A DNA stretch of 9,826 nucleotides. It comes from a virus. Its lineage: Duplodnaviria > Heunggongvirae > Uroviricota > Caudoviricetes. Below the pieces are notes generated by a model. That model was not told the origin of the DNA. It did no database searches and saw only the letters and a program-made list of their open reading frames with translations. The translations under genes and the position numbers were made by a program. The stretch spans positions 1 through 9,826 of the IMG/VR virus record IMGVR_UViG_2617270990_000005; one strand, written 5' to 3'. How positions within the stretch are numbered: the first letter of the stretch is position 1; each line of letters begins with the position of its first letter. Below, piece by piece: positions 1-9,826 of the stretch.

Positions 1-23
1 TGGAGAGTGTTTTATCTGTGAAC

Positions 24-914
24 TCAGGCTGCCAGATCATCGTTTCCGATGGAAGCATAATAAGCTTTTTCTGCTTCTGCCGGAGGAGTATGGCCCAGCC
101 TTCCCAGCAATCGTCGATTGTTATACCAGTCCACCCACGTTAGTGTGGCCAGTTCCACTTCTGCACGGTTTTTCCAGCTCTTACGGTGTATTACCTCCGC
201 TTTGTAAAGACCATTGATGCTCTCAGCCATCGCGTTGTCATACGAGTCGCCTGTACTCCCTGTTGATGCCAGTAATCCGGCTTCTTTTAGTCGCTCCGTA
301 TAGGCCAGTGACACATACTGAGAGCCTTTATCGCTGTGATGGATGGTGCCAGACGGACGACGGGCCCACAACGCCTGCTCCAGCGCATCCAGCACGAATG
401 TCGTTTCCATAGACGATGAGACCCGCCACCCCACGATGTATCCGGCAAACACATCAATGATAAACGCCACATAGACGAAGCCCTGCCATGTGCTGACGTA
501 AGTAAAATCAGCCACCCACAGCTGGTCAGGTCGTTCTGCCACGAACTGACGGTTTACGCGGTCGCCTGCGGCAACGGCTTTCCGGCTGATGGTCGTACGG
601 ACCTTTTTACCCCGGAGAACACCGGCAAGTCCCATAACCGCCATGAGACGTGCCACTGTACATCTGGCCACCCTGATTCCTTCCCGTAACAACTGACGCC
701 AGACTTTACGCACACCGTACACCTGATGATTTTCATCGTATACGCGCTGTATCTCTCTCTTCAGCCAGTCGTCGTGCTGCGCACGGGCACTGCGTTTATC
801 CGGATGATGTCGCTGTTGCTGACAATGGTAATACGTTGACGGGGCAATATGCAGTTCGCTGCATACCGGTCCGACCCCGTACTGCTCACGCAGCTTATCC
901 AGCAGTGGCATCAT
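24..914 (-). CDS. IS3-family transposase OrfB (DDE integrase-like catalytic part), expected to be made as an OrfAB fusion by -1 frameshifting
   Basis: 296-aa ORF; I recognise the translation as near-identical to IS629/IS1203 OrfB (recalled, not searched). Start ATG (912..914) overlaps the orfA stop in the -1 frame. Confidence 0.9.
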
Positions 915-1237
915 TTTTTCCAGAGGCGGTCGAACTCCGCCTTCGCAAAATAAGCGGAAGCCTGGCGAAGGATATCGTTACTGCGGCGCAGTTCACGATT
1001 TTCACGTTCCAGCTCTTTCAGACGCTGACGTTCAGCGCTGGTGAGCCCACCATCACCGCCCCCGGTATCCCGCTCATGCTGGCGAACCCAGACACGCAGA
1101 GTCTCCGGCGTACAGCCAATCTTTGGGGCAATGGAACAAATTGCCGCCCACTGTGAGTCATATTCATCCTGACTTTCCAGAACCATACGAATCGCCCGCT
1201 GACGGACTTCGGGGGAAAAACGAGTATTTTTAGTCAT
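911..1237 (-). CDS. IS3-family transposase OrfA (helix-turn-helix / leucine-zipper DNA-binding subunit)
   Basis: 108-aa [25 protein letters not shown]...; matches my recollection of IS629 OrfA almost residue for residue. The [25 protein letters not shown] stretch is the leucine-zipper region typical of IS3 OrfA. Confidence 0.9.
914..919 (-). promoter_or_regulatory. Candidate -1 programmed frameshift site (A6 run) at the orfA/orfB overlap
   Basis: Plus-strand T6 at 914..919 is AAAAAA on the coding strand, immediately before the orfA TGA stop (911..913), with the orfB frame offset by -1. Exact slip site not verified. Confidence 0.5.
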
Positions 1238-1291
1238 CCTGTTTACCTCTTTCTCAGGGAGTTTAGTCTCCAGGATTTCCGGGGCGGTTCA

Positions 1292-2236
1292 GAGGAAGGA
1301 TCAGGCCGTACGCAGGTTATAAGGATGATGCTCACGGTATCGAGCACTGATGCCGTTACCCTGAAAGTTGATCCGTCCGTTGTGCTGGCAACCCGGCAGT
1401 ATGTTGATAGTGCTGTAATTGAGGTGAAAACCTATACAGACAACGCGATAAAAAAGCACGTTGACACCGCTAATCCGCATAGCCAGTACCTGTTGATTGA
1501 AAATGCTCTTAAAGAATTGATTAAGGCCGGGTTGGTTGGAGAGGCTATCAAAAACCTTGGTTTGGATAAAACAGTTCAATTAGCAGCCGATGCGTTACCT
1601 GCTTCTGGTGGGAGGGTTACTGGTGATGTGATTGTTGAAGGTATTATCTCAGCAGTCGGACACGAAATGATCGTGGAAAAAGAGAGTGGTTTTTCAGGTA
1701 TTCATATCAAAAATAAAAGCAGTGAAAATGGAAGTGCATGTGGTTTGGATTTTTCATTTGGTGGAGCAATTATGTCGTCGATTATTTGCGGCATAATGGG
1801 AAACGGCGCGAACTATATTGATTTTGCTTTATCTCCATCAGGGGAGATCTCCGATCGTCGAGTTAATGCATTCACAATGAATGCTGATGTGAAAAAATTG
1901 ATTTTTCAGAATGATTGGGGCATTCAGGGGTATGTGAAAAATACAGACTTTACTCAGGTAATGGCTGATGCCGGTTGGGTGCGTTTTCCAAATGGAATAA
2001 TTTTACAGTGGTGTTGGGGGAATACTGATGGTGGCGGCTGGGCTTCAGCCCCTTTTCCTATTGGTTGGCCTGTTCGCTGTTTTGGTATTTTGCCATGCAA
2101 TGTGGCTGGTGATGCAGCAGCGTCGGCGATTGCTGGAGTTAAAAGATTAAGCGATCGAGATATGCAGGTTTCTTTATTAGAAAGAACAGGCGTCGCTGCG
2201 TCAAAACCATTCTTTTGCTTTGGTGTGGGGTGTTAA
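1292..2236 (+). pseudogene. Tail-fibre protein, C-terminal (receptor-binding) fragment, 5'-truncated by the IS insertion; longest ATG-initiated ORF is 1325..2236
   Basis: Reading frame is open from the IS junction at 1292 through to stop at 2234..2236. Translation is tail-fibre-like in composition (Thr/Ser/Gly-rich, Trp/Cys-rich C-terminus with GWVRFPNGIILQW) and is followed 2 nt later by a tail-fibre assembly gene. 303 aa is short for a complete tail fibre. Assignment is by resemblance only. Confidence 0.55.
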
Positions 2237-2238
2237 TT

Positions 2239-2670
2239 ATGTTTAGTAATATATATTTCAGTGCTAAGAATAACTCATTCTTTTTTGAGTCAATGAAATC
2301 AGACTATGAAAAAACGAATACATGGCCTGATGACATTGTTGAAGTTGAATCTGATATTTATCAGAAATACACAGGAAGGCCGCCAGAAGGAAAAGGTAGA
2401 GGAGGCGACGCTTCCGGTCAGCCTGTATGGGTTGATGTATCAGAGCCTACAGCCGATCAGTTAATTGCGTTAGCTATACAGCAAAAAAAAGACTTGGCTG
2501 AAAATGCAGGTACAGAAATTGCGTGGCGGCAGGATGCGATTGAAGCTGGTATTTCAACCGATGATGAAGTTATTCAGCTTGCGAAGTGGAAGAAATATCG
2601 GGTGCTATTAATGCGTATTGACACATCAAAAGCCCCCGACATTATCTGGCCTGATATCCCTGAGGATTAA
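2239..2670 (+). CDS. Tail-fibre assembly chaperone (Tfa / P2 gpG-like)
   Basis: ATG at 2239 sits 2 nt after the tail-fibre stop, with a G-rich stretch (2226..2230) upstream. C-terminus ...KWKKYRVLLMRIDTSKAPDIIWPDIPED matches the Tfa-family C-terminal signature as I remember it. The six-frame ORF at 2215 begins with TTG and overlaps the upstream gene, so 2239 is the more likely start. Confidence 0.75.
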   Translation: MFSNIYFSAKNNSFFFESMKSDYEKTNTWPDDIVEVESDIYQKYTGRPPEGKGRGGDASGQPVWVDVSEPTADQLIALAIQQKKDLAENAGTEIAWRQDAIEAGISTDDEVIQLAKWKKYRVLLMRIDTSKAPDIIWPDIPED

Positions 2671-3635
2671 TTTGATAGGCTTTTTAGTCTAAAGTTTGCA
2701 ATTAAATTATCTTTAATGATATTAGCTATTGAATAGCTAATGCAAATAGTGCATGCGATTGTTGTTATGACTAACCAATCAGATGCAAATTGTTTTGCAA
2801 ACTGAATGGCATAGATTTGTATAAGATATATGTTTTTTGAGTGCTCGCGAATTGTGAAGGTGTTTTTTGTTTTCAGGGTGATATCTAGAACTTTTAAAAA
2901 AACAAAAACACCAGCGAATGGAAGTGAAAAAAGCATATCAAAGGTATATGTGCCATATGAATAATTTACGGATGCCTCAATGATGACCAAAATAATGGAA
3001 CCAATGAGTAAATATGTATTGTTATTTCTTATGTTATTTTTATTTATAAGGTATCCAAGCATAAACAATGGAAAACCCATGAAAAGACCGTTTCTGGAAA
3101 AGAAAACTGTAGCGAGAGACCATATGTCACGATTTATGTCAATGGAATAATTTGCGCGATATTGAAGTAACGTGCCGCACGTATAAAGTATGCAGCATAT
3201 GATTATTAATGTGCGATCTTTTAGCTTAGCTAAAAGTAATGTTAATAATGCCGATACTATCAGGGCAGGGAAAAACCATAAGTGCCAAAATCCAAATACT
3301 GCATTTAGAGATAAATATGTAAGGTCTGTCGCTAAAGGCTTACCCGCCCTAATAAAACCAACTAATCCTAGTATTATTGGTAAGTAAAGAAGCGTCCATA
3401 GAGCATAGGTTTTTATATTGTGAGAAAACCATTTTTTAATTTTATTTTTTTGCATTACAGAAAAATAAAAATATCCACTAGTAATGAAAAAGAATGGCAC
3501 TGCAATCCTTAGCAGTCCCTGGCAAGTAACATATCCTATATAATTACTGTTGCCGCCTAAAATGTCTGTGTGTATAAAAATGATACAAAACGCAAAGAAA
3601 AGTTTTGCGTAATCAATTGAGGAAAGGTTTTTCAT
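2667..3635 (-). CDS. Acyltransferase-3 family integral membrane protein (Oac/OafA-like putative O-antigen/LPS O-acetyltransferase); prophage cargo gene
   Basis: About 10 predicted hydrophobic helices. Contains the family-typical IAVPFFFITSGYF motif and an N-terminal helix ending in His (IDYAKLFFAFCIIFIH). Coding sequence is conspicuously AT-rich. Start chosen at ATG 3633..3635 (MKNLSSID...), which gives a family-typical short N-terminus; the maximal ORF starts at 3704 and neither start has a clear Shine-Dalgarno. Stop codon overlaps the Tfa stop (convergent). Confidence 0.8.
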   Translation of the reverse strand: MKNLSSIDYAKLFFAFCIIFIHTDILGGNSNYIGYVTCQGLLRIAVPFFFITSGYFYFSVMQKNKIKKWFSHNIKTYALWTLLYLPIILGLVGFIRAGKPLATDLTYLSLNAVFGFWHLWFFPALIVSALLTLLLAKLKDRTLIIICCILYTCGTLLQYRANYSIDINRDIWSLATVFFSRNGLFMGFPLFMLGYLINKNNIRNNNTYLLIGSIILVIIEASVNYSYGTYTFDMLFSLPFAGVFVFLKVLDITLKTKNTFTIREHSKNIYLIQIYAIQFAKQFASDWLVITTIACTICISYSIANIIKDNLIANFRLKSLSN

Positions 3636-3761
3636 ATAGAGTCTAGTCGCGCAATTAGGAAAAATTGTGGTTATTTTACTTACAAAAATTCTAAGGACAA
3701 TCATTTAGTCTGCACAATTTACACATGATTGAACAAAATTAGAGCTAGGTCTCTTGTTGCT

Positions 3762-3805
3762 CCCCTCGGTGAAAACCAATCCGAGGGGTATATTTTTACT
3801 TGTTT
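3762..3805 (+). terminator. Intrinsic-terminator-like hairpin, oriented for the + strand
   Basis: 8-bp GC-rich stem CCCCTCGG (3762..3769) pairs with CCGAGGGG (3781..3788) around an 11-nt loop, followed on the + strand by the T-rich tract TATATTTTTACTTGTTT (3789..3805). On the - strand the 3' flank is not U-rich. Confidence 0.4.
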
Positions 3806-4292
3806 AAAACAGACTGGATGCGGCGGCGCTGATATTATTCAGCGCTGAGTTGGCTGTGTTTTGCAGGTTGCCGAGTAAATCACTCACTGATGAAGACTGG
3901 AGGCTTTCGCGCAGGTCTTCATCCTGCCTTTGAAACGTGATCGTAAATTCTATTTTCTTCGGCTCCCCATACTGGTCAAATTCAGTATCGGTGGTCTGAA
4001 GCTGCGTTATCGAATACATGCCATAGATCCGCCCGGTGCCGCTGATAAGAGGCCAGGGGCGTCCGGTGTAGGCCTGTGTATCGAGCACAGTTAGACTCAC
4101 CTTACCGCCGGTCACTGATGGGTACAAAACACCGGATAAGGTAATCTGATCGTCACCTGCACCAATGTATTGCCACTTTGCCGATCGGTTTATGCGCTCG
4201 TTCTTTACATGCCGCCATGTCTTTGACTGCTGTAATTGTTGGTGGGGAATGGTTTTTAACTCAAAGACGAACATTCCGTAAACCATCATCAT
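3804..4292 (-). CDS. U: Phage tail protein U (P2 gpU-like)
   Basis: 162-aa ORF MMMVYGMFVFELKTIPHQQLQQSKTWRH... resembles the P2 gpU N-terminus as I recall it. AGGAGAG Shine-Dalgarno lies 8-9 nt upstream, and the gene starts 12 nt after the tape-measure stop. Confidence 0.85.
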   Translation of the reverse strand: MMMVYGMFVFELKTIPHQQLQQSKTWRHVKNERINRSAKWQYIGAGDDQITLSGVLYPSVTGGKVSLTVLDTQAYTGRPWPLISGTGRIYGMYSITQLQTTDTEFDQYGEPKKIEFTITFQRQDEDLRESLQSSSVSDLLGNLQNTANSALNNISAAASSLF

Positions 4293-4304
4293 TGTTTTGC
4301 TCTC

Positions 4305-7300
4305 CTAATCTTTGTCTCTGAAACTGCTACCAGAGCGGGAACGCTTGTTAAGTTCTGCCCCAACTGCATCAGTCACCATCCGTGCAATGTCGCGGGCGTC
4401 GTTGCTGAGATCGCCGTGCATATGAATGTGAATATGTATTTCATCAGGAGCGGTGTTTTGCGCCGGTTTGCTGGCTTGTTTACTGGATTGCCCGCTAATA
4501 GCCTGTACTTCAACTGCCGGTTTAATCGGTGCTGATGCCGCCGCGATAACCGGGCGCGCGCTAAGTTGGGCCAGGTTTGCGCCTGGGGGTGATTGTGCTT
4601 CCTGCCATGCGCCGTGGACGGCTAATGCGCGGGGCAGATTCTTAAACACGATATCGCCAGGGCCGATCCGCTTTTTGGTTGCATCCAGCATCCCGCCGGT
4701 ATTGTCCGCAATTTTCTGTAACCGCCGTTGAGTTCCCGTATCAACAGCAATCACTGGTGATGGTGGGGCGATAGGTGGCGCGGTTACTGCTTTCATATCG
4801 ACAGTGAGCGTGCCAACCTTGTCCTGCAGCATAGCCAATCCTGCCGGTGTGAGTTCCTTCTGCACTTTCTCCGCTTTTGCTTTCGCCGCTTCAATCCCGG
4901 ACGGAATCAGCCCCAGCTTTTCAAGTATCCAGCCAACCATTTTGGCCAATCCAGTCAGAGGTAACATTAGCCCCTGAATTGCCAGGCCAAACACTTTGCC
5001 GAACGTCTCCCCAGCGCTTGCGCATTTATCCAATGTCTCTTTGCTGGTCGTCATTGGTGAAAGCAGGTTGCTGAACCACTGCCACAACTGAGAAACGGCA
5101 TTTGAGATCACATCAAAGACGGGGGCCAGTCCGGCGAAGGCATCACGGAACGGCGTAAGCGCCTGCATTACACCGGCAAAGAAGCCCGCAAAGAAGGCTT
5201 TGATCGGCTCCCAGAATCGCCAGATAAGCAACCCTGTGGCAATGAAGGCCGCGCCAATCAGCCCGATCGGGCTTAACAGCAATGACAGCGCGCCGCCGAG
5301 CATCGAGAGGGCCGAGCTAGCGATCCCCATGATTGCAGGTATGCCGGTCAGGCGAAGCAGGAGACTACCAAGCCCTTTTACAATTCCGCCCAGGGCGGCA
5401 CCTGGTGAGATAAACGCGGCGGCAAGCAGTCCTCTCAATGGGGCAAGCGCGCCAGCCAGTTTCCCGGCGTTGCCGGTCATTCTACTGAAGACGACACCCC
5501 AGCCACGGATGCCGCCAAGCGGCCCGGAAATAACGCCAGCCAGGCGGCTGAACAGTGTCACCGCGCCACCCAGCCCGCTCCCGCTGGTTAGCAGGGCAAA
5601 GCCGAGTTGAAGTTTTGCCAGTGGCCCCAGAAGTAAGCCAATAGCCAGGGACGTTGCGCCAATCCCGGCGGTGAGGGCCAGCACACTGCCGCCAACAGCC
5701 AGAAGGGTTTTTGATAGCTGCGGATTCTTATTCGCCCATTCAGTCATCACGCCGATCGTGCCGGTCAGTGCCTGGGTGAGTTTTCGCAGTGCGCCGTCCG
5801 CCAGTTCTTCAATCTGGATACGGAATGCTTCCCAGGCGCTATCGAGTTCTTTTAGATCCCCGCCCAGGTTGTCCGCCATTTTTTTTGCGACGGTAGCGGA
5901 TTCACCGGCAGCGCCCTGAAGTTCTTTTGTGAGCTTTTGTAGTTCTCCCGAGCCTGCCGCCTGTACCAGCGTCTGGAGGCCCACAAAGGCCTCTTCACCG
6001 GCGATATTTTTGAAGAAAGATACCTGATCAACCTGCCCGTATTTCTGTGTGGCTTTGAAAAGGTCTAACAGTACCGTTTCCATCGGGCGCATTTTCCCGT
6101 TGGCGTCGGCAACCGACACGCCTAGCTCTTTCAGAGCATCAGCCGCGGCTTTTGGTGGTGAAGCAAGGCGGGATAGACTGGAACGTAATGCTGTACCCGC
6201 GTCACTGCCGCGCAGACCGTTATTGGCAAGCATACCCGCCATAGCGGATGCCTCTTCCAGGCTAATACCCAGATTAGCCGCCACTGGCCCCGCGTATTTC
6301 ATTGTGTCGCCCAGGGCGCGCAGGTCGGTATTGGTACGGGTAAATGCGGCTGTTAGCGTATCGCCAACCCTGTCCATCTGATCTGATGACAGCTTGAATT
6401 GCGTCAGGATGTTTGAACCGATATCAGCGGACTCACCCAGATCCATGCCACCGGCTAGCGCCATATTCAGAACGCCAGGCAGCGCAGCCTGAATTGACTG
6501 TGGTGTAAAGCCAGCCATTGCCAGGAAGGCTTGCCCGCTGGCGGCGTCTCGCGTGGTAAATGCGGTTTCAGCGCCAAGTTTTTTGGCCTGGGCGCGCAGG
6601 GCGGCAAACTGTTCATCGCCTTTATCCAGGCGGGTCAGTGCGCCTACGCGCGACATTTCCTCATCAAAACCCACGGCAGGGGCCAGGAAGCGTCCGGCAG
6701 CGTAGCCCGCTCCCGCGCTTGCGCCAATCGCCACCGCGCCGCCGGTGCGCAATTTGCCCGCTGTGGCGCTCAGACGGTCATAACGGGCGCGCGCGTTGGT
6801 GACTGCGGCAAGTTGTCGCCGTTCTCTCTCAAGCGTCTGGTTGTATTGCTCAGTGCGTCTGATAGCGCTTTGAATTGTGCGATCGCCGCCCGCCAGTGAA
6901 ACGCCGTGCGCGCGCAGCGCCTGGGACGCTTGCTGGAGTTTTGCTGTCTCCTGTGACCGGCTGGCATTCAGGCGATCAAGTTTCGCTGCCAGTGCCGTCA
7001 TGCGCTCGCGCTGTGCGTCGGTTAGTACCGTGCCGTTTTTCTGTGCTTTATTCAGGCCGTCAAAGGCTCGCTGTGTTGTGGTGAGTTGCTGGGATGTCTT
7101 TTTAACGCGCTCATTCAGGCGGTTGAATGCCTGGGATTGCGTTTCCAGATCTTTGATAGACGATTGTGTTTTTTTGAGGGATTCAGATAAGCCGCCCACT
7201 GAGTTGCGGGCGGCATTTACCGGGCGGGTTAACTTATCAATCGCACTGAAGGCGACACGGATATTAAGGTCTTTCATCTTCACTGTTTCCGCTTCGGATA

Positions 7301-7313
7301 GCCGCCCGTTCAC
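4305..7313 (-). CDS. T: Tail tape measure protein (P2 gpT-like)
   Basis: About 1000 aa with an N-terminal coiled-coil-like Gln/Ala/Arg-rich region, a long central Gly/Ala/Leu-rich hydrophobic block and a C-terminal domain. Sits between E/E' and U as in P2. The 7313 start is GTG, preceded by GAGGTGA at ~9 nt; an in-frame ATG at 7275..7277 is an alternative. Confidence 0.85.
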   Translation of the reverse strand: MNGRLSEAETVKMKDLNIRVAFSAIDKLTRPVNAARNSVGGLSESLKKTQSSIKDLETQSQAFNRLNERVKKTSQQLTTTQRAFDGLNKAQKNGTVLTDAQRERMTALAAKLDRLNASRSQETAKLQQASQALRAHGVSLAGGDRTIQSAIRRTEQYNQTLERERRQLAAVTNARARYDRLSATAGKLRTGGAVAIGASAGAGYAAGRFLAPAVGFDEEMSRVGALTRLDKGDEQFAALRAQAKKLGAETAFTTRDAASGQAFLAMAGFTPQSIQAALPGVLNMALAGGMDLGESADIGSNILTQFKLSSDQMDRVGDTLTAAFTRTNTDLRALGDTMKYAGPVAANLGISLEEASAMAGMLANNGLRGSDAGTALRSSLSRLASPPKAAADALKELGVSVADANGKMRPMETVLLDLFKATQKYGQVDQVSFFKNIAGEEAFVGLQTLVQAAGSGELQKLTKELQGAAGESATVAKKMADNLGGDLKELDSAWEAFRIQIEELADGALRKLTQALTGTIGVMTEWANKNPQLSKTLLAVGGSVLALTAGIGATSLAIGLLLGPLAKLQLGFALLTSGSGLGGAVTLFSRLAGVISGPLGGIRGWGVVFSRMTGNAGKLAGALAPLRGLLAAAFISPGAALGGIVKGLGSLLLRLTGIPAIMGIASSALSMLGGALSLLLSPIGLIGAAFIATGLLIWRFWEPIKAFFAGFFAGVMQALTPFRDAFAGLAPVFDVISNAVSQLWQWFSNLLSPMTTSKETLDKCASAGETFGKVFGLAIQGLMLPLTGLAKMVGWILEKLGLIPSGIEAAKAKAEKVQKELTPAGLAMLQDKVGTLTVDMKAVTAPPIAPPSPVIAVDTGTQRRLQKIADNTGGMLDATKKRIGPGDIVFKNLPRALAVHGAWQEAQSPPGANLAQLSARPVIAAASAPIKPAVEVQAISGQSSKQASKPAQNTAPDEIHIHIHMHGDLSNDARDIARMVTDAVGAELNKRSRSGSSFRDKD

Positions 7314-7500
7314 GCCAGGCTATCACCTCACTCAGGGACATAGTGAAAACCTCTGAGGGCGGCCAGTTGAAAATAACTGCTATATCAGCAACCAGATCAT
7401 CGATCAGGTCAAAGTGGGGCGCGTTTACTCGCTCTCCGTCTCCGTCTCGTTCTTCGTGCCAGGCTCCTTCGGCGCTAAAAAAGGCGTGAGCGCCTCGCAA
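7264..7500 (-). CDS. E' extension frame of the tail assembly chaperone, expressed only as the E+E' fusion (7736 to 7264) after a -1 frameshift
   Basis: ORF in the -1 frame relative to gpE; overlaps the 3' end of E and the 5' end of T. The sequence after the slippery site reads FFSAEGAWHEERDGD..., continuous with gpE ...EALTPF. Confidence 0.7.
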   Translation of the reverse strand: MRGAHAFFSAEGAWHEERDGDGERVNAPHFDLIDDLVADIAVIFNWPPSEVFTMSLSEVIAWRERAAIRSGNSEDERP

Positions 7501-7736
7501 AGTTCAACAAAGTCAGATGTTGCCATTTCGCTGATTTCTTTGAGCTTCAGGCGCGGGGAAGTGCAGCGGGTTAGCAGGGTGCTGATGCTGTCCACGTCCA
7601 TATTCATCACGTTCACCAGGCGAAGGCCGCGCAGGGTACCAGCCTGTTTCACTTCGTCAGTGATCGTGATGGTTTTGATTTCGTTGCCGTCGCGTTTAAT
7701 CGGGCGTGTCAGTGTTACGGTGTTTTCTTCGGTCAT
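7425..7736 (-). CDS. E: Tail assembly chaperone (P2 gpE-like)
   Basis: 103-aa acidic ORF between tube and tape-measure genes. GGAG Shine-Dalgarno 9 nt upstream of ATG 7734..7736. Carries the conserved frameshift arrangement with the downstream E' frame. Confidence 0.85.
   Translation of the reverse strand: MTEENTVTLTRPIKRDGNEIKTITITDEVKQAGTLRGLRLVNVMNMDVDSISTLLTRCTSPRLKLKEISEMATSDFVELCEALTPFLAPKEPGTKNETETESE
7476..7482 (-). promoter_or_regulatory. Slippery heptamer T_TTT_TTA for the -1 programmed ribosomal frameshift of the tail chaperone (E to E+E')
   Basis: gpE zero-frame codons are CCT TTT TTA GCG (P F L A); plus strand 7476..7482 is TAAAAAA. A -1 slip gives TTT TTT AGC..., which is exactly the E' frame. 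Confidence 0.7.
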
Positions 7737-7751
7737 CGTTTTAATCTCCGG

Positions 7752-7771
7752 GCGGCATCACCCGATGCCGC
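7752..7771 (-). other. Stable stem-loop in the tube-chaperone intergenic region
   Basis: GCGGCATC (7752..7759) pairs with GATGCCGC (7764..7771) around a 4-nt loop, giving an 8-bp GC-rich stem. It sits immediately 5' of the gpE Shine-Dalgarno on the mRNA, with no U-tract after it. Confidence 0.45.
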
Positions 7772-7789
7772 GCCTGTAGTGGTTGTTAG

Positions 7790-8302
7790 TTATCCCATGC
7801 CCAGCGCAGACATTACGCGGGAAGGGTAAATATTTTCGTCGTTGCGTTTGTACACGAAGTTCAGCAGGTCAATTTCCCAGATGGGCTTATCGTCAATTGA
7901 CAGCTTGTAGTACGTGTTTTTAATGGCGTAGGTTACGGACGTATCTTCGCCCTGCTTGCTTTCGCCGCCGTCGATTTCGGTGAATTTGCCGCGCATTTCC
8001 ACGTCAACGATCTGACTCTCGCCGGATGTGTAATATTCCCCGGTGAATCGGATAAGCGTTCCGTCCAGATCGCCGCCGTATTCCAGTAGCAGAGCCTGAA
8101 CCAGGCCGCCTACAACCATCGTGGCATCAAGCGCGCCGCTATCCAGTCCGAGATCGACAGCAACAGAGCCAATCATCCCGCCGCCCTGATAGTCGTCAGT
8201 TTTGCGGGTCAGTTTTGGCAGCGTGACAGATGTCACTTTGCCGATATTGTTCACGCTGTTCACAAAGCAGGTGAACAGCCGTAGTTTTGGTGGAATCGCC
8301 AT
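7790..8302 (-). CDS. FII: Major tail tube protein (P2 FII-like)
   Basis: 170-aa ORF containing ...VTLPKLTRK...GGGMIGSVAVDLGLD..., matching the conserved tube-protein core as I recall it. GGGAG Shine-Dalgarno upstream; ATG abuts the sheath stop codon. Confidence 0.9.
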   Translation of the reverse strand: MAIPPKLRLFTCFVNSVNNIGKVTSVTLPKLTRKTDDYQGGGMIGSVAVDLGLDSGALDATMVVGGLVQALLLEYGGDLDGTLIRFTGEYYTSGESQIVDVEMRGKFTEIDGGESKQGEDTSVTYAIKNTYYKLSIDDKPIWEIDLLNFVYKRNDENIYPSRVMSALGMG

Positions 8303-9309
8303 TTAGTTACTCCCCAGAGACGAAAACGCGCCTTCAAAATATTCATCGGTGAACGTCTGGATCAGCGTCAAATCTTCCATCGGTGGCACCGGCGTGTACT
8401 TGTAGCGGATCGCCACTTTGCCCTGAATCAGGTTTGCGGTTCCGTTGTCCACGATGTCAAACCAGGCTTCCGCGCCAAGCAACTTGCCAGCTGTGACCAG
8501 TGCACTGAGTTTCTTGTTAATCGCGCTCACCACGTCTTTCACGTTGGTCGGGGTGAGTGGCCCGTCAATGGTTTCAAATTGCGCCTCTGCGATGGTGTCC
8601 GCCAGGATTTGCGCCGTGCGGGTGTACACCTCAAACACAAATTCATTGGTGTCTGTGGTGCGGTTACCCCAGAAACGGAAGCCATTACGCTTGATGATGG
8701 TGGTGATTTCGGCGTTGTTCAGCGTCTGTGCGTCACTGTCTTCAGCCTGAAGCGCCCAGAAAACATCCTTCGAAATGCCAAGCGCATTGCTGACGGCAAT
8801 GTTAGATAGCGAGCGGTGCCAGCCGTACTGGTTATCAATAAACGCGCGCAGCCCTACCGCATAGGCCGGGGCCGGGAATACTTCATTTTCCCCGGACACC
8901 TGGTTATATGCGATGTAGTCAGGCCAGATCAGCGTGAGTTCGCGTGATGCGAAGGTTTTACGATACGCGAGGGCTTCCGCCAGCGTCTTGCAGCCGTTAC
9001 AGCTTGCATAAACATAGGCGCGAAGCTGTTTGGCGATCACACAAAGCTGTGCCGTCACTTCTTCGGTGTCGTATTCAGGAACCGCCAGGATGCGCGGTCG
9101 ATACTGTGTCTTCTGTTCGGCAGTCAGAAGCGCATACATGCCGGTGTAGTTACCTTCAGCATCAGAGCCACCGATAATCAGTTGCACTTGCGTTTCCGCT
9201 TCTGCGTCGCCTTCCAGCGGCTTGGCTGCGGCGACACGAACAACAATGACTTTCGCGCTTGCCTGGTCTGAAATGGCTTTCAGCGTTTTGTACAGCGTCC
9301 CTGTTTTCC
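8303..9309 (-). pseudogene. FI: Contractile tail sheath protein (P2 FI-like), 5'-truncated by IS insertion
   Basis: Frame is open from stop (8303..8305) up to the IS junction at about 9309/9310 with no plausible start codon. The translation begins mid-protein (GKTGTLYKTLKAISDQ...), aligning with P2 FI from roughly residue 65 onward (from memory). The six-frame ORF 8303..9187 begins at an internal GTG. Confidence 0.85.
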
Positions 9310-9826
9310 CATAAGCGCTAACTTAAGGGTTGAACCATCTGAAGAATGCGACGCCTCGGTGCCTCGTTAAGACGATGCCTCGCGTTCTTCAATTGCGTTT
9401 TGTAGGCTGTCAGGGATACTGTCCCACGAATGGCCACCTGTAAGCTCCAGATGACCATTTTTGTTATTCTCCACAACGAGTTAGTTCTTCTTTTCGGATC
9501 CGGCACTTCTGGGGGGGAAATCCAGCGATGGCTGGATTATGTCGTCAATTAAAAATGCGGCGAGTAGATTAGCAAATATCCACGCTTTCGCGAGTTCAGG
9601 TTCCTTTGCACGCAAAGCATCCAGGTGCAGCAAACTTTTGAGCCGCTTAAAAGCCAGTTCAATTTGCCATCGCAGACGGTAACAATCAGCCACTTGCTCT
9701 GCTGAATATTCATCTTCCGGTAATGATGTTAGCAATAGCACATGGCCCGCTGCTTCCAGCGTTTCCGCCTGAACTACTCGTCCTTTTCGACGATTCTCGC
9801 TGAGCAGTCGGGTTTTACTGATTAAT
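9310..9826 (-). mobile_element. IS4-family insertion sequence, IS186-like; partial, continues past the window end
   Basis: 9310..9332 reads CATAAGCGCTAACTTAAGGGTTG, which I recall as the IS186 terminal inverted repeat (not database-checked). It is adjacent to a CCCTGTTTTCC flank (9299..9309) and contains the C-terminal part of a transposase gene. Confidence 0.7.
9481..9825 (-). CDS. IS4-family DDE transposase, C-terminal part (5' end outside window)
   Basis: Frame is open from the window edge to stop at 9481..9483. Contains YRLRWQIELAFKRLK, an exact fit to the IS4-family Y-(2)-R-(3)-E-(6)-K signature. Confidence 0.8.
   Translation of the reverse strand, partial: LISKTRLLSENRRKGRVVQAETLEAAGHVLLLTSLPEDEYSAEQVADCYRLRWQIELAFKRLKSLLHLDALRAKEPELAKAWIFANLLAAFLIDDIIQPSLDFPPRSAGSEKKN

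Follow-up and report, generated by a model that had tools for sequence, protein, structure and literature searches.

Why do the tail genes of a P2-like prophage face each other? In P2 the late genes from H to D are colinear, as the original prediction had stated and as we confirmed: V, W, J, I, H and G are followed by fun(Z), and this in turn by FI, FII, E, E', T, U, D and ogr. The stretch of DNA analysed here (the window, 9,826 nucleotides) departs from this P2/186 order, in which all genes lie on one strand and D comes right after U. ORFs and Pfam domains bear out the strands that had been claimed: H' and G on the + strand, and the acyltransferase gene, U, T, E/E', FII and FI' on the - strand. 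The prediction took this order to imply an inversion or a module replacement. We consider it very probable that the window derives instead from a P88-like prophage whose convergent order is native to its clade, which carries insertion sequences (IS) in H and FI, and which has acquired a cassette of fibre and cargo genes. The window itself spans an entire draft contig of 9826 bp (GCA_000705005.1, JNSB01000110.1) and probably represents the middle part of such a prophage, family Peduoviridae, from a host that is likely to be Escherichia or a close relative. Its features are as follows.

1..1291, - strand: IS3-family insertion sequence (orfA 911-1237, orfB 24-914; Pfam HTH_Tnp_1, rve)
1292..2236, + strand: tail fibre gene H', without its first 114 codons (Pfam Phage_tail_fib, Gp53-like_C)
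1292-1434, + strand: conserved shaft part of H'
1435-2236, + strand: variable receptor-binding part of H' (homology to the relative L014 ends at 1434)
2239..2670, + strand: tail fibre assembly protein G (Tfa), 143 aa (Pfam Caudo_TAP, 114 bits, E=5.8e-33; PHROG 188)
2667..3635, - strand: AT3-family integral-membrane acyltransferase, a cargo gene ('moron'; Pfam Acyl_transf_3, PF01757)
3636..3803, no strand: AT-rich spacer between U and the acyltransferase gene, 168 nt, 35.7% GC (from sequence)
3804..4292, - strand: gpU, tail protein of the P2 GpU family and final gene of the FI-U operon (Pfam Phage_P2_GpU, 134 bits, E=2.2e-39)
4305..7313, - strand: tape measure protein T (Pfam PhageMin_Tail, E=1.8e-56)
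7264..7736, - strand: tail assembly chaperones E (7425-7736) and its extension E' (7264-7500) (Pfam Phage_TAC_7, Phage_P2_GpE)
7790..8302, - strand: tail tube protein FII (Pfam Phage_tube, E=9.8e-44)
8303..9310, - strand: tail sheath gene FI', without its first 61 codons and promoter (Pfam Phage_sheath_1, Phage_sheath_1C)
9308..9826, - strand: IS421 (IS4 family), with an intact inner end and an outer part truncated where the contig stops (identity to IS421 of E. coli strain 53)

FI, FII, E/E', T and gpU all score above their Pfam cut-offs (PF04984/PF17482, PF04985, PF10109 with PF06528, PF10145 and PF06995, respectively) and make up a P2-family tail module of the Peduoviridae type. E and E' are joined via a -1 frameshift at the slippery sequence CCT TTT TTA (7476-7484), and reading the -1 frame after TTTTTT reproduced the E' ORF. 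The source record also calls G at 2239-2670. gpU is 42% identical to P2 gpU and 67% identical to that of P88.

Two insertion sequences in tail genes

Both ends of the contig fall inside IS copies, so that its IS-flanked appearance partly mirrors the break points of a short-read assembly. The left element, which we take to be IS629/IS1203-like, matches IS3-family copies of E. coli strain 53 at 99.6-99.7% identity. It ends at 1291 with TGAACCGCCCCGG, an intact inner terminal repeat, and the contig stops short of its outer end. In the strain 53 copies the terminus, ...GGGGCGGTTCA, abuts unrelated DNA; these E. coli copies show an intact terminus at 1291, which rules out a canonical IS3 with a truncated end. 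On the right, 519 nt match IS421 as annotated in E. coli strain 53 at 100% identity, and the 25-nt terminal inverted repeat of IS421 begins at 9308. A 36-mer spanning the junction between the left IS and H' had no match in the representative-genome collection.

In the source genome, the IS3-family element interrupts the fibre gene H of the prophage, and IS421 its sheath gene FI. The full H gene encodes 428 aa in E. coli ES1 (NZ_CM184353.1) and in intact prophages from Logan assemblies; the Phage_tail_fib match of H' aligns profile positions 126-150 with residues 1-25, and the listed ORF begins at ATG 1325. FI encodes 396 aa in ES1, and homology stops at 9310. These tail genes are dead in the source genome, H lacking its baseplate-binding end and FI its start codon and promoter. 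The real lesions of this genome are the two IS insertions that inactivate H and FI.

Gene order in relatives and origin of the FI-U block

IS-free intact prophages in the Logan assemblies that are 99.96-99.99% identical over 1290-9310 have the same gene order, with D and ogr divergent beyond FI. The ES1 prophage, also IS-free and with the same order, is 97.5% identical over this interval, and its int-to-ogr segment is located between cpxP and fieF. The ES1 and Logan prophages are the same element, with the same fibre tip, Tfa and acyltransferase, but unlike the window's copy they are complete and free of IS. In the collection, 97 blocks index exactly this acyltransferase protein; all 24 contigs that were read carry it. 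gpD, the Ogr/Delta activator and the P2-type capsid, portal and terminase proteins lie outside the window; the intact copies with 99.99% identity encode them, as does ES1 (PF05954, PF04606 and PF05125, among others).

Named phages of the Peduoviridae share the arrangement. In Escherichia phage P88 (Xuanwuvirus), Enterobacter phage phiT5282H (Novemvirus) and Klebsiella phage 3LV2017 (Reginaelenavirus), V W J I H G is met by U T E' E FII FI, and D(-ogr) is divergent; the window supplies the convergent half of this layout and its near-identical intact copies the D-ogr half. Their gpU proteins are 67-72% identical to that of the window, and their tail-operon DNA 68-71%. In a comparison that covered 8 kb of this region, the best phage match is phiT5282H, which aligns to 55% of the query at 70.8% identity. 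The ICTV genus criterion is about 70% nucleotide identity over the genome. Since DNA identity is about 70% over about half of the region, the window's prophage does not belong to the species P88, phiT5282H or 3LV2017.

We also surveyed IMG/VR, splitting the loci by gpU type (window-type versus P2-type). Of the 67 informative loci with window-type gpU, 66 had D diverging from FI, and J lay opposite to U in 49 of 50. By contrast, D followed U in all P2-type loci (80/80) and J was on the same strand (34/34).

The layout is therefore ordinary: it is normal and conserved in a large, sequenced P2-like branch, and is not a rearrangement of the source genome. Intact relatives are normally convergent, an outcome that the prediction itself had named as refuting it, and the claim of an inversion or replacement at this locus is not supported. 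The absence of gpD after U had been part of the case. A Pfam search indeed detected no Phage_GPD homologue anywhere in the window, and U is followed by 168 nt of 35.7% GC and then by the acyltransferase gene of 32.1% GC; yet the argument drawn from this falls away, as gpD and ogr sit beyond FI on the opposite strand in relatives. The convergent layout was already known from deposited annotated genomes. We call it known on their strength because our search of the literature (P88, Citrobacter phiSM, Burkholderia P2-like phages, Xuanwuvirus) turned up no paper that sets out the inversion explicitly.

P2 and the window's clade share the gene families; both also frameshift between E and E', keep a cargo site behind G (occupied by fun(Z) in P2) and encode an activator of the Ogr type, and their proteins are 29-58% identical. 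They differ in that P2 has FI-FII-E-T-U-D-ogr colinear with H-G, in one F operon, whereas in the clade FI-U is inverted and D-ogr forms a separate divergent unit. In the clade's native architecture, a single long late unit, O...S-V-W-J-I-H-G, is oriented rightwards, the FI-FII-E/E'-T-U operon leftwards towards H-G, and D and ogr away from FI across a 156-215-nt spacer. The inversion of FI-U relative to P2 is old and fixed; in a deep ancestor, the FI-U block alone probably inverted while D-ogr stayed in place. Of the inversion originally proposed, only this clade-wide evolutionary event stands, and at the present locus the same order in IS-free 99.96-99.99% identical prophages speaks against any.

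Could IS recombination or another recent event have flipped the tail operon or the fibre block here, parting U from D? Two IS bound the segment and both interrupt phage genes, and a rearrangement was the original suspicion. These elements belong to different families, IS3 and IS4, which precludes homologous recombination between them. An IS-mediated inversion would be marked by two inverted copies of one IS and by IS-free relatives in the other orientation; neither was seen. Order and orientation are identical in the IS-free near-identical prophages, in ES1, in the three named phages and in 66 of the 67 IMG/VR relatives. The G|U junction, moreover, lies within the contig and is the same in intact relatives, which refutes a local event at that very point. 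We regard such an event as extremely unlikely. Still less credence is due to a chimeric contig that misjoins fibre and tail genes, an outcome that a short-read draft contig with repeats at its ends might invite: the G/acyltransferase/U junctions are unique sequence and recur in many independent assemblies of differing origin, including a finished chromosome, and we hold the chance of an artefact to be negligible.

Another alternative is that the contractile-tail operon (FI-U) of an unrelated phage was inserted in reverse and the original lost. Phage genomes are mosaic, and the GC content of the tail operon (55%) is unlike that of the fibre block. The deviant GC, however, is that of the fibre/cargo cassette and not of the tail operon. 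FI, FII, E, T and U are 34-46% identical to their P2 counterparts, within the 29-58% range of other virion proteins of the same prophage, such as those of the capsid and baseplate and D (50%); the identity pattern against P88 is parallel, and all domains are P2-family Pfam domains. Module replacement, which the gene order had been thought to imply, is thus unsupported, the divergence of FI-U from P2 matching that of the other virion genes, and we judge it improbable, if less so than a local flip. We give hardly any weight to the further idea that FI-U is currently switchable by a Hin/Gin-type invertase. Around half of the relatives do carry a DNA invertase gene between U and the fibre genes, and a truncated invertase adjoins U in E. 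coli AMSCJX04, but neither the window nor its 99.99% identical relatives have one. Repeat searches at the block boundaries, which included P88 and a further relative (L006), found no inverted repeats flanking FI-U. The 65-nt repeats of P88 (23822-23886 and 26862-26926) bracket a fibre segment only, and a single orientation prevails in 66 of 67 loci. The window therefore offers none of the inverted repeats or recombinase genes that might have been expected at the breakpoints, and FI-U lacks the recombinase and bracketing repeats of switched segments of the Mu G, P1 C or e14 P type.

These results correct the assumption that the P2 gene order is universal in Peduoviridae. Convergent H-G and U-T-E-FII-FI with a split-off D-ogr is a lineage signature (P88-like phages, Novemvirus, Reginaelenavirus and hundreds of prophages), and annotators should not take it for damage or rearrangement.

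The fibre, Tfa and acyltransferase cassette

The suggestion that the low-GC fibre/Tfa/cargo block is a swapped-in cassette held up well. GC content is 43.1% in the H C-terminus, 41.0% in G and 37.8% across the cassette at 1435-3799, as opposed to 55.1% in the tail operon (3804-9310); segment by segment it ranges from 32 to 43% across 1435-3803. A relative with a 99% identical gpU (L014) shares only 1290-1434 on the left and 3800-9310 on the right, the latter at 91.7% DNA identity, and has an invertase and other fibre genes between the breakpoints at 1434 and 3800. Homology to it starts at 3800, placing the right breakpoint near this position. Identity is 98-99.5% in the cassette versus 86-97% in the adjacent H-shaft, U and T.

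In this clade, cargo sits in the interval that separates G from U, a slot corresponding in position to the P2 fun(Z) site. Its contents vary: about half of the relatives have an invertase there and one (L015) the acyltransferase. P88 carries a second, inverted fibre/Tfa set and a DNA invertase between the fibre genes and U, where the window has the AT3 acyltransferase; 3LV2017 has extra fibre genes in that position, and phiT5282H has nothing. The acyltransferase gene was probably acquired jointly with the fibre tip and Tfa, in one low-GC mosaic cassette (~1435-3800). If the three travel as a single exchangeable unit, a phage would gain a receptor specificity along with an enzyme to mask this receptor in its lysogen.

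The protein is a clear member of Acyl_transf_3 (PF01757), scoring 68.5 bits against a cut-off of 31, with residues 28-324 aligned to positions 2-322 of the 326-position profile. Its ORF reaches to 3704, but ATG 3635 is the likely start because homologues are 319-322 aa long (322 aa in the ES1 annotation). The 3' ends of this gene, 32.1% GC, and of G overlap by 4 nt. The match to PHROG 3333 (O-acetyltransferase) is weak (E=5e-5), and the best named homologues are called 'acyltransferase family protein' only. NCBIfam gave only sub-threshold VanT membrane-domain matches, a PDB sequence search gave no match, and across the homologue, NCBIfam and PDB searches no characterised relative or solved structure was found. 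Among the nearest known systems, we presume, are phage-borne AT3 O-antigen acetyltransferases such as Oac of Shigella phage Sf6. Like the Oac type, the window's protein is a single-domain, multi-pass Acyl_transf_3 protein of ~320-345 aa encoded by low-GC cargo of a temperate phage; it differs in that no characterised enzyme was found to be closely related to it in sequence. We infer that it would acylate a surface polysaccharide in the lysogen, for lysogenic conversion or superinfection exclusion. As an intact cargo gene, it could still alter the cell surface, if this predicted function is correct.

The spacer between U and the acyltransferase gene contains a hairpin, CCCCTCGG-N11-CCGAGGGG, at 3759-3785, and a weak sigma-70-like match on the - strand at 3700-3673 that does not rise above chance. 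A promoter and terminator scan of 1250-4400 gave matches no more numerous than in shuffles; it missed the hairpin because the loop is 11 nt long.

The spacer between D and FI

The conserved motif of the D|FI spacer and its geometry, on which the proposal is based, suggest that this spacer drives late transcription in both directions under Ogr control, as the P|O spacer does in P2. A strict search for TGT-N12-ACA matched only 3 of 65 D|FI spacers and missed P2's own annotated sites, and the empirically conserved form T[GC]T-N12-ACAAC was adopted after it. This form occurs in all 65 spacers (56 distinct sequences), as one central element each, over a background of ~0.1 per kb, and is similar to the activator sites annotated for pF and pO/pP of P2.

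Tentatively, and with slightly less than even confidence in the combination, we propose that the inversion of FI-U created a second bidirectional Ogr-dependent region at D|FI and that fibre tip, Tfa and acyltransferase travel as one cassette. A D|FI control region of the P|O kind, if real, would uncouple gpD expression from the tail operon. Both the spacer motif and the cassette that joins fibre and acyltransferase genes offer leads that are modest but testable. The element is centred 82-88 nt from the start of FI and 68-95 nt from that of D. A point against the promoter reading is that its half-site is TCT in most relatives rather than the canonical TGT.

Gene content of the window

We assigned the genes of the window by ORF listing and Pfam scans.

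Features of the window (coordinates, strand, identity)
1-1291: IS3-family element at the left end, inner terminus intact
1292-2236, + strand: tail-fibre gene H' without its 5' end (coding from 1292; ORF from ATG 1325 to 2236)
2239-2670, + strand: G, tail-fibre assembly gene
2667-3635, - strand: Acyl_transf_3 membrane protein (Pfam), ORF open to 3704
3804-4292, - strand: gpU
4305-7313, - strand: tape measure T
7264-7500, - strand: E'
7425-7736, - strand: E
7790-8302, - strand: tube FII
8303-9310, - strand: FI', 5'-truncated sheath gene
9308-9826: IS421 at the right end, inner terminus intact

Every gene named in the original prediction was present, and its observations of a convergent order, a missing gpD and a GC drop were correct. 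ORF listing and Pfam scans found no gpD homologue in the window, and GC content, at 55.1% in the tail operon, drops in the fibre tip (43.1%), G (41.0%), the acyltransferase (32.1%) and the 168-nt spacer below U (35.7%). E and E' are joined via a -1 slip at a conserved CCT TTT TTA site (7476-7484, - strand), where reading in the -1 frame gives exactly the E' ORF. The window is the complete draft contig JNSB01000110.1 (GCA_000705005.1), which ends inside both IS copies, as is usual for short-read assemblies at repeats. The junction 36-mer had no match in the representative-genome collection.

Gene order in relatives and its origin

The P2 order from which the original prediction started, H-G-fun(Z)-FI-FII-E-E'-T-U-D-ogr, is indeed colinear. 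The proposal that the window departs from it by a local inversion or module replacement did not survive comparison with close relatives. Index entries for the identical acyltransferase protein occur in 97 blocks of the assembly collection; 24 contigs were read, represented here by seven places, and every one carries the protein. At these places, ogr and D lie on one strand and FI-FII-E-T-U-acyltransferase on the other, beyond which G-H-I-J-W-V-S-R continue to the capsid genes, back on the ogr/D strand; the order is visible only in part in L005 (Logan SRR36207453) and L011, owing to a cut contig or a disrupted FI. These prophages are IS-free, and over 1290-9310 they match the window at 99.96-99.99% identity. 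A complete prophage with this order, from int through ogr and at 97.5% identity, sits between cpxP and fieF on the finished E. coli ES1 chromosome. The layout also occurs in P88 (Xuanwuvirus), phiT5282H (Novemvirus) and Klebsiella phage 3LV2017 (Reginaelenavirus).

We also surveyed the best 80 IMG/VR loci with a window-type gpU (67-99% identity). Of the 67 loci showing both D and U, 66 have D divergent from FI; J and U lie on opposite strands in 49 of 50. By contrast, among 80 IMG/VR loci with a P2-type gpU, D directly followed U in all 80 and J shared its strand in 34 of 34. From the survey, the intact prophages and the named phages, we conclude that the convergent layout is a clade trait: close intact relatives are normally so ordered, and gpD, whose absence after U had been read as a sign of rearrangement, sits in them just outside the FI-U block. 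Annotated public genomes of phages from three genera already show this architecture, as do hundreds of prophages; a literature search found no paper commenting on it. The two survey exceptions are L080, with a different baseplate type, and L046 (IMG/VR 2690316161_000021, 2128-12585), which appears to be a rearranged defective prophage. L046, the sole surveyed locus with J-I-H on the strand of U, retains only the N-terminal part of H, lacks FI and FII, and has T cut at residue 250.

Relative to P2, exactly the FI-U block is inverted, with the D-ogr strand unchanged. The block could have been inverted in place or imported as a foreign tail module. Compared with the P2 equivalents, its proteins show 34-46% identity, inside the 29-58% spanned by the prophage's capsid, baseplate and D proteins, and the identity profile against P88 is parallel; this favours an old in-place inversion over import. 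No inverted repeats flank the FI-U block in the window, an intact copy or P88, which has long inverted repeats solely around the fibre segment beside its invertase. The two IS of the window belong to different families and have no part in the gene order.

The fibre cassette and the convergent junction

The suggestion that the low-GC fibre/Tfa/cargo block is a swapped-in cassette was borne out. In the IMG/VR relative L014, gpU is 99% identical and the DNA 91.7% identical over 3800-9310; left of 3800, homology is confined to 1290-1434 (85.5%), and a DNA invertase and different fibre/Tfa genes lie between the shared segments. The breakpoints, inside H at ~1434 and just below the U stop at ~3800, both match the GC drop. 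The cassette of L015 (IMG/VR) and ES1, moreover, matches the window at 98-99.5% identity, and the adjoining H-shaft, U and T at only 86-97%. Separately, the tape measure gene (4305-7313) is the most diverged gene in comparisons with the otherwise near-identical prophages L015 and L001 (86.5% in L015 versus 96-99.5% for its neighbours).

Across the clade, the gap between U and G corresponds in position to the fun(Z) site of P2; about half of the loci have an invertase there, some have this acyltransferase, and others nothing. In a relative at 80% identity (E. coli AMSCJX04, L002, 19592-20489), all of R to G is gone, including tail completion, baseplate and fibre genes, and a 5'-truncated serine-recombinase pseudogene, the remnant of an invertase-type cargo slot, lies directly beside U.

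The cargo of the window is a single-domain AT3 acyltransferase (Pfam, 68.5 bits) with a weak PHROG match to 'O-acetyltransferase'. Its reading frame extends a further 23 codons (3636-3704) ahead of the start that all homologues use, and gene calls differ (345 aa in Logan/NCBI versus 322 aa in RefSeq ES1), but the homologue lengths, all 319-322 aa, point to ATG 3635. Sequence, profile and structure database searches found no characterised relative or solved structure. Phage AT3 O-antigen acetylases exist, and our best guess by analogy is that the protein would acylate surface polysaccharide in the lysogen.

G and the acyltransferase are convergent and their 3' ends overlap by 4 nt (2667-2670), leaving no space for a terminator between them. 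Just below the U stop, at 3759-3785, lies an 8-bp GC-rich hairpin, CCCCTCGG-N11-CCGAGGGG. Because a T-run (TATATTTTTACTT) follows it on the + strand only, it looks like a terminator for H-G transcripts crossing the acyltransferase antisense, not for the U operon. At the equivalent junction P88, by contrast, has an 18-nt perfect-stem palindrome between its convergent invertase and U (27555-27596), likely a bidirectional terminator; the window has no such palindrome between G and the acyltransferase.

The D-FI spacer and mobile elements

In P2, D is the final gene of the F operon; here it is split from the tail operon and would need its own promoter. The D-FI spacer is 156-215 nt long, and one T[GC]T-N12-ACAAC element was found in it in all 65 IMG/VR relatives (56 distinct spacer sequences); the background rate of the motif in these loci is ~0.1 per kb. 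Its centre is 82-88 nt away from the start codon of FI and 68-95 nt from that of D. The ES1 copy, a perfect TGT-N12-ACA, resembles the annotated pF activator site of P2, and the sole other perfect copy in the ES1 late region lies in the divergent P-O spacer. The P-O spacer of P2, in which one annotated activator site serves both promoters, measures 173 nt between start codons, compared with 177 nt for D-FI in ES1. From the conserved element and this geometry, we propose that the D-FI spacer is a putative bidirectional Ogr-dependent late promoter, which would drive both D and FI-U. The window itself lacks this region: IS421 took away the first 61 codons of FI with all upstream sequence, its promoter included.

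H likewise lacks 114 N-terminal codons, the baseplate-attachment part. With both genes truncated, the tail genes of this copy are non-functional whatever adjoins the IS elements, but its acyltransferase gene is undamaged. In L005 (320-5402), a Mu-like element with MuA and MuB genes abuts a truncated 262-aa sheath gene of the same prophage; in this other sample a mobile element has thus disrupted FI a second time, independently. In E. coli strain 53 (L012, 1056-5943), the same IS3-family element is split by a group II intron, itself split by IS421; this nested pile-up, which adjoins kwaAB defence genes, accounts for the thousands of E. coli records that matched the window at both ends.
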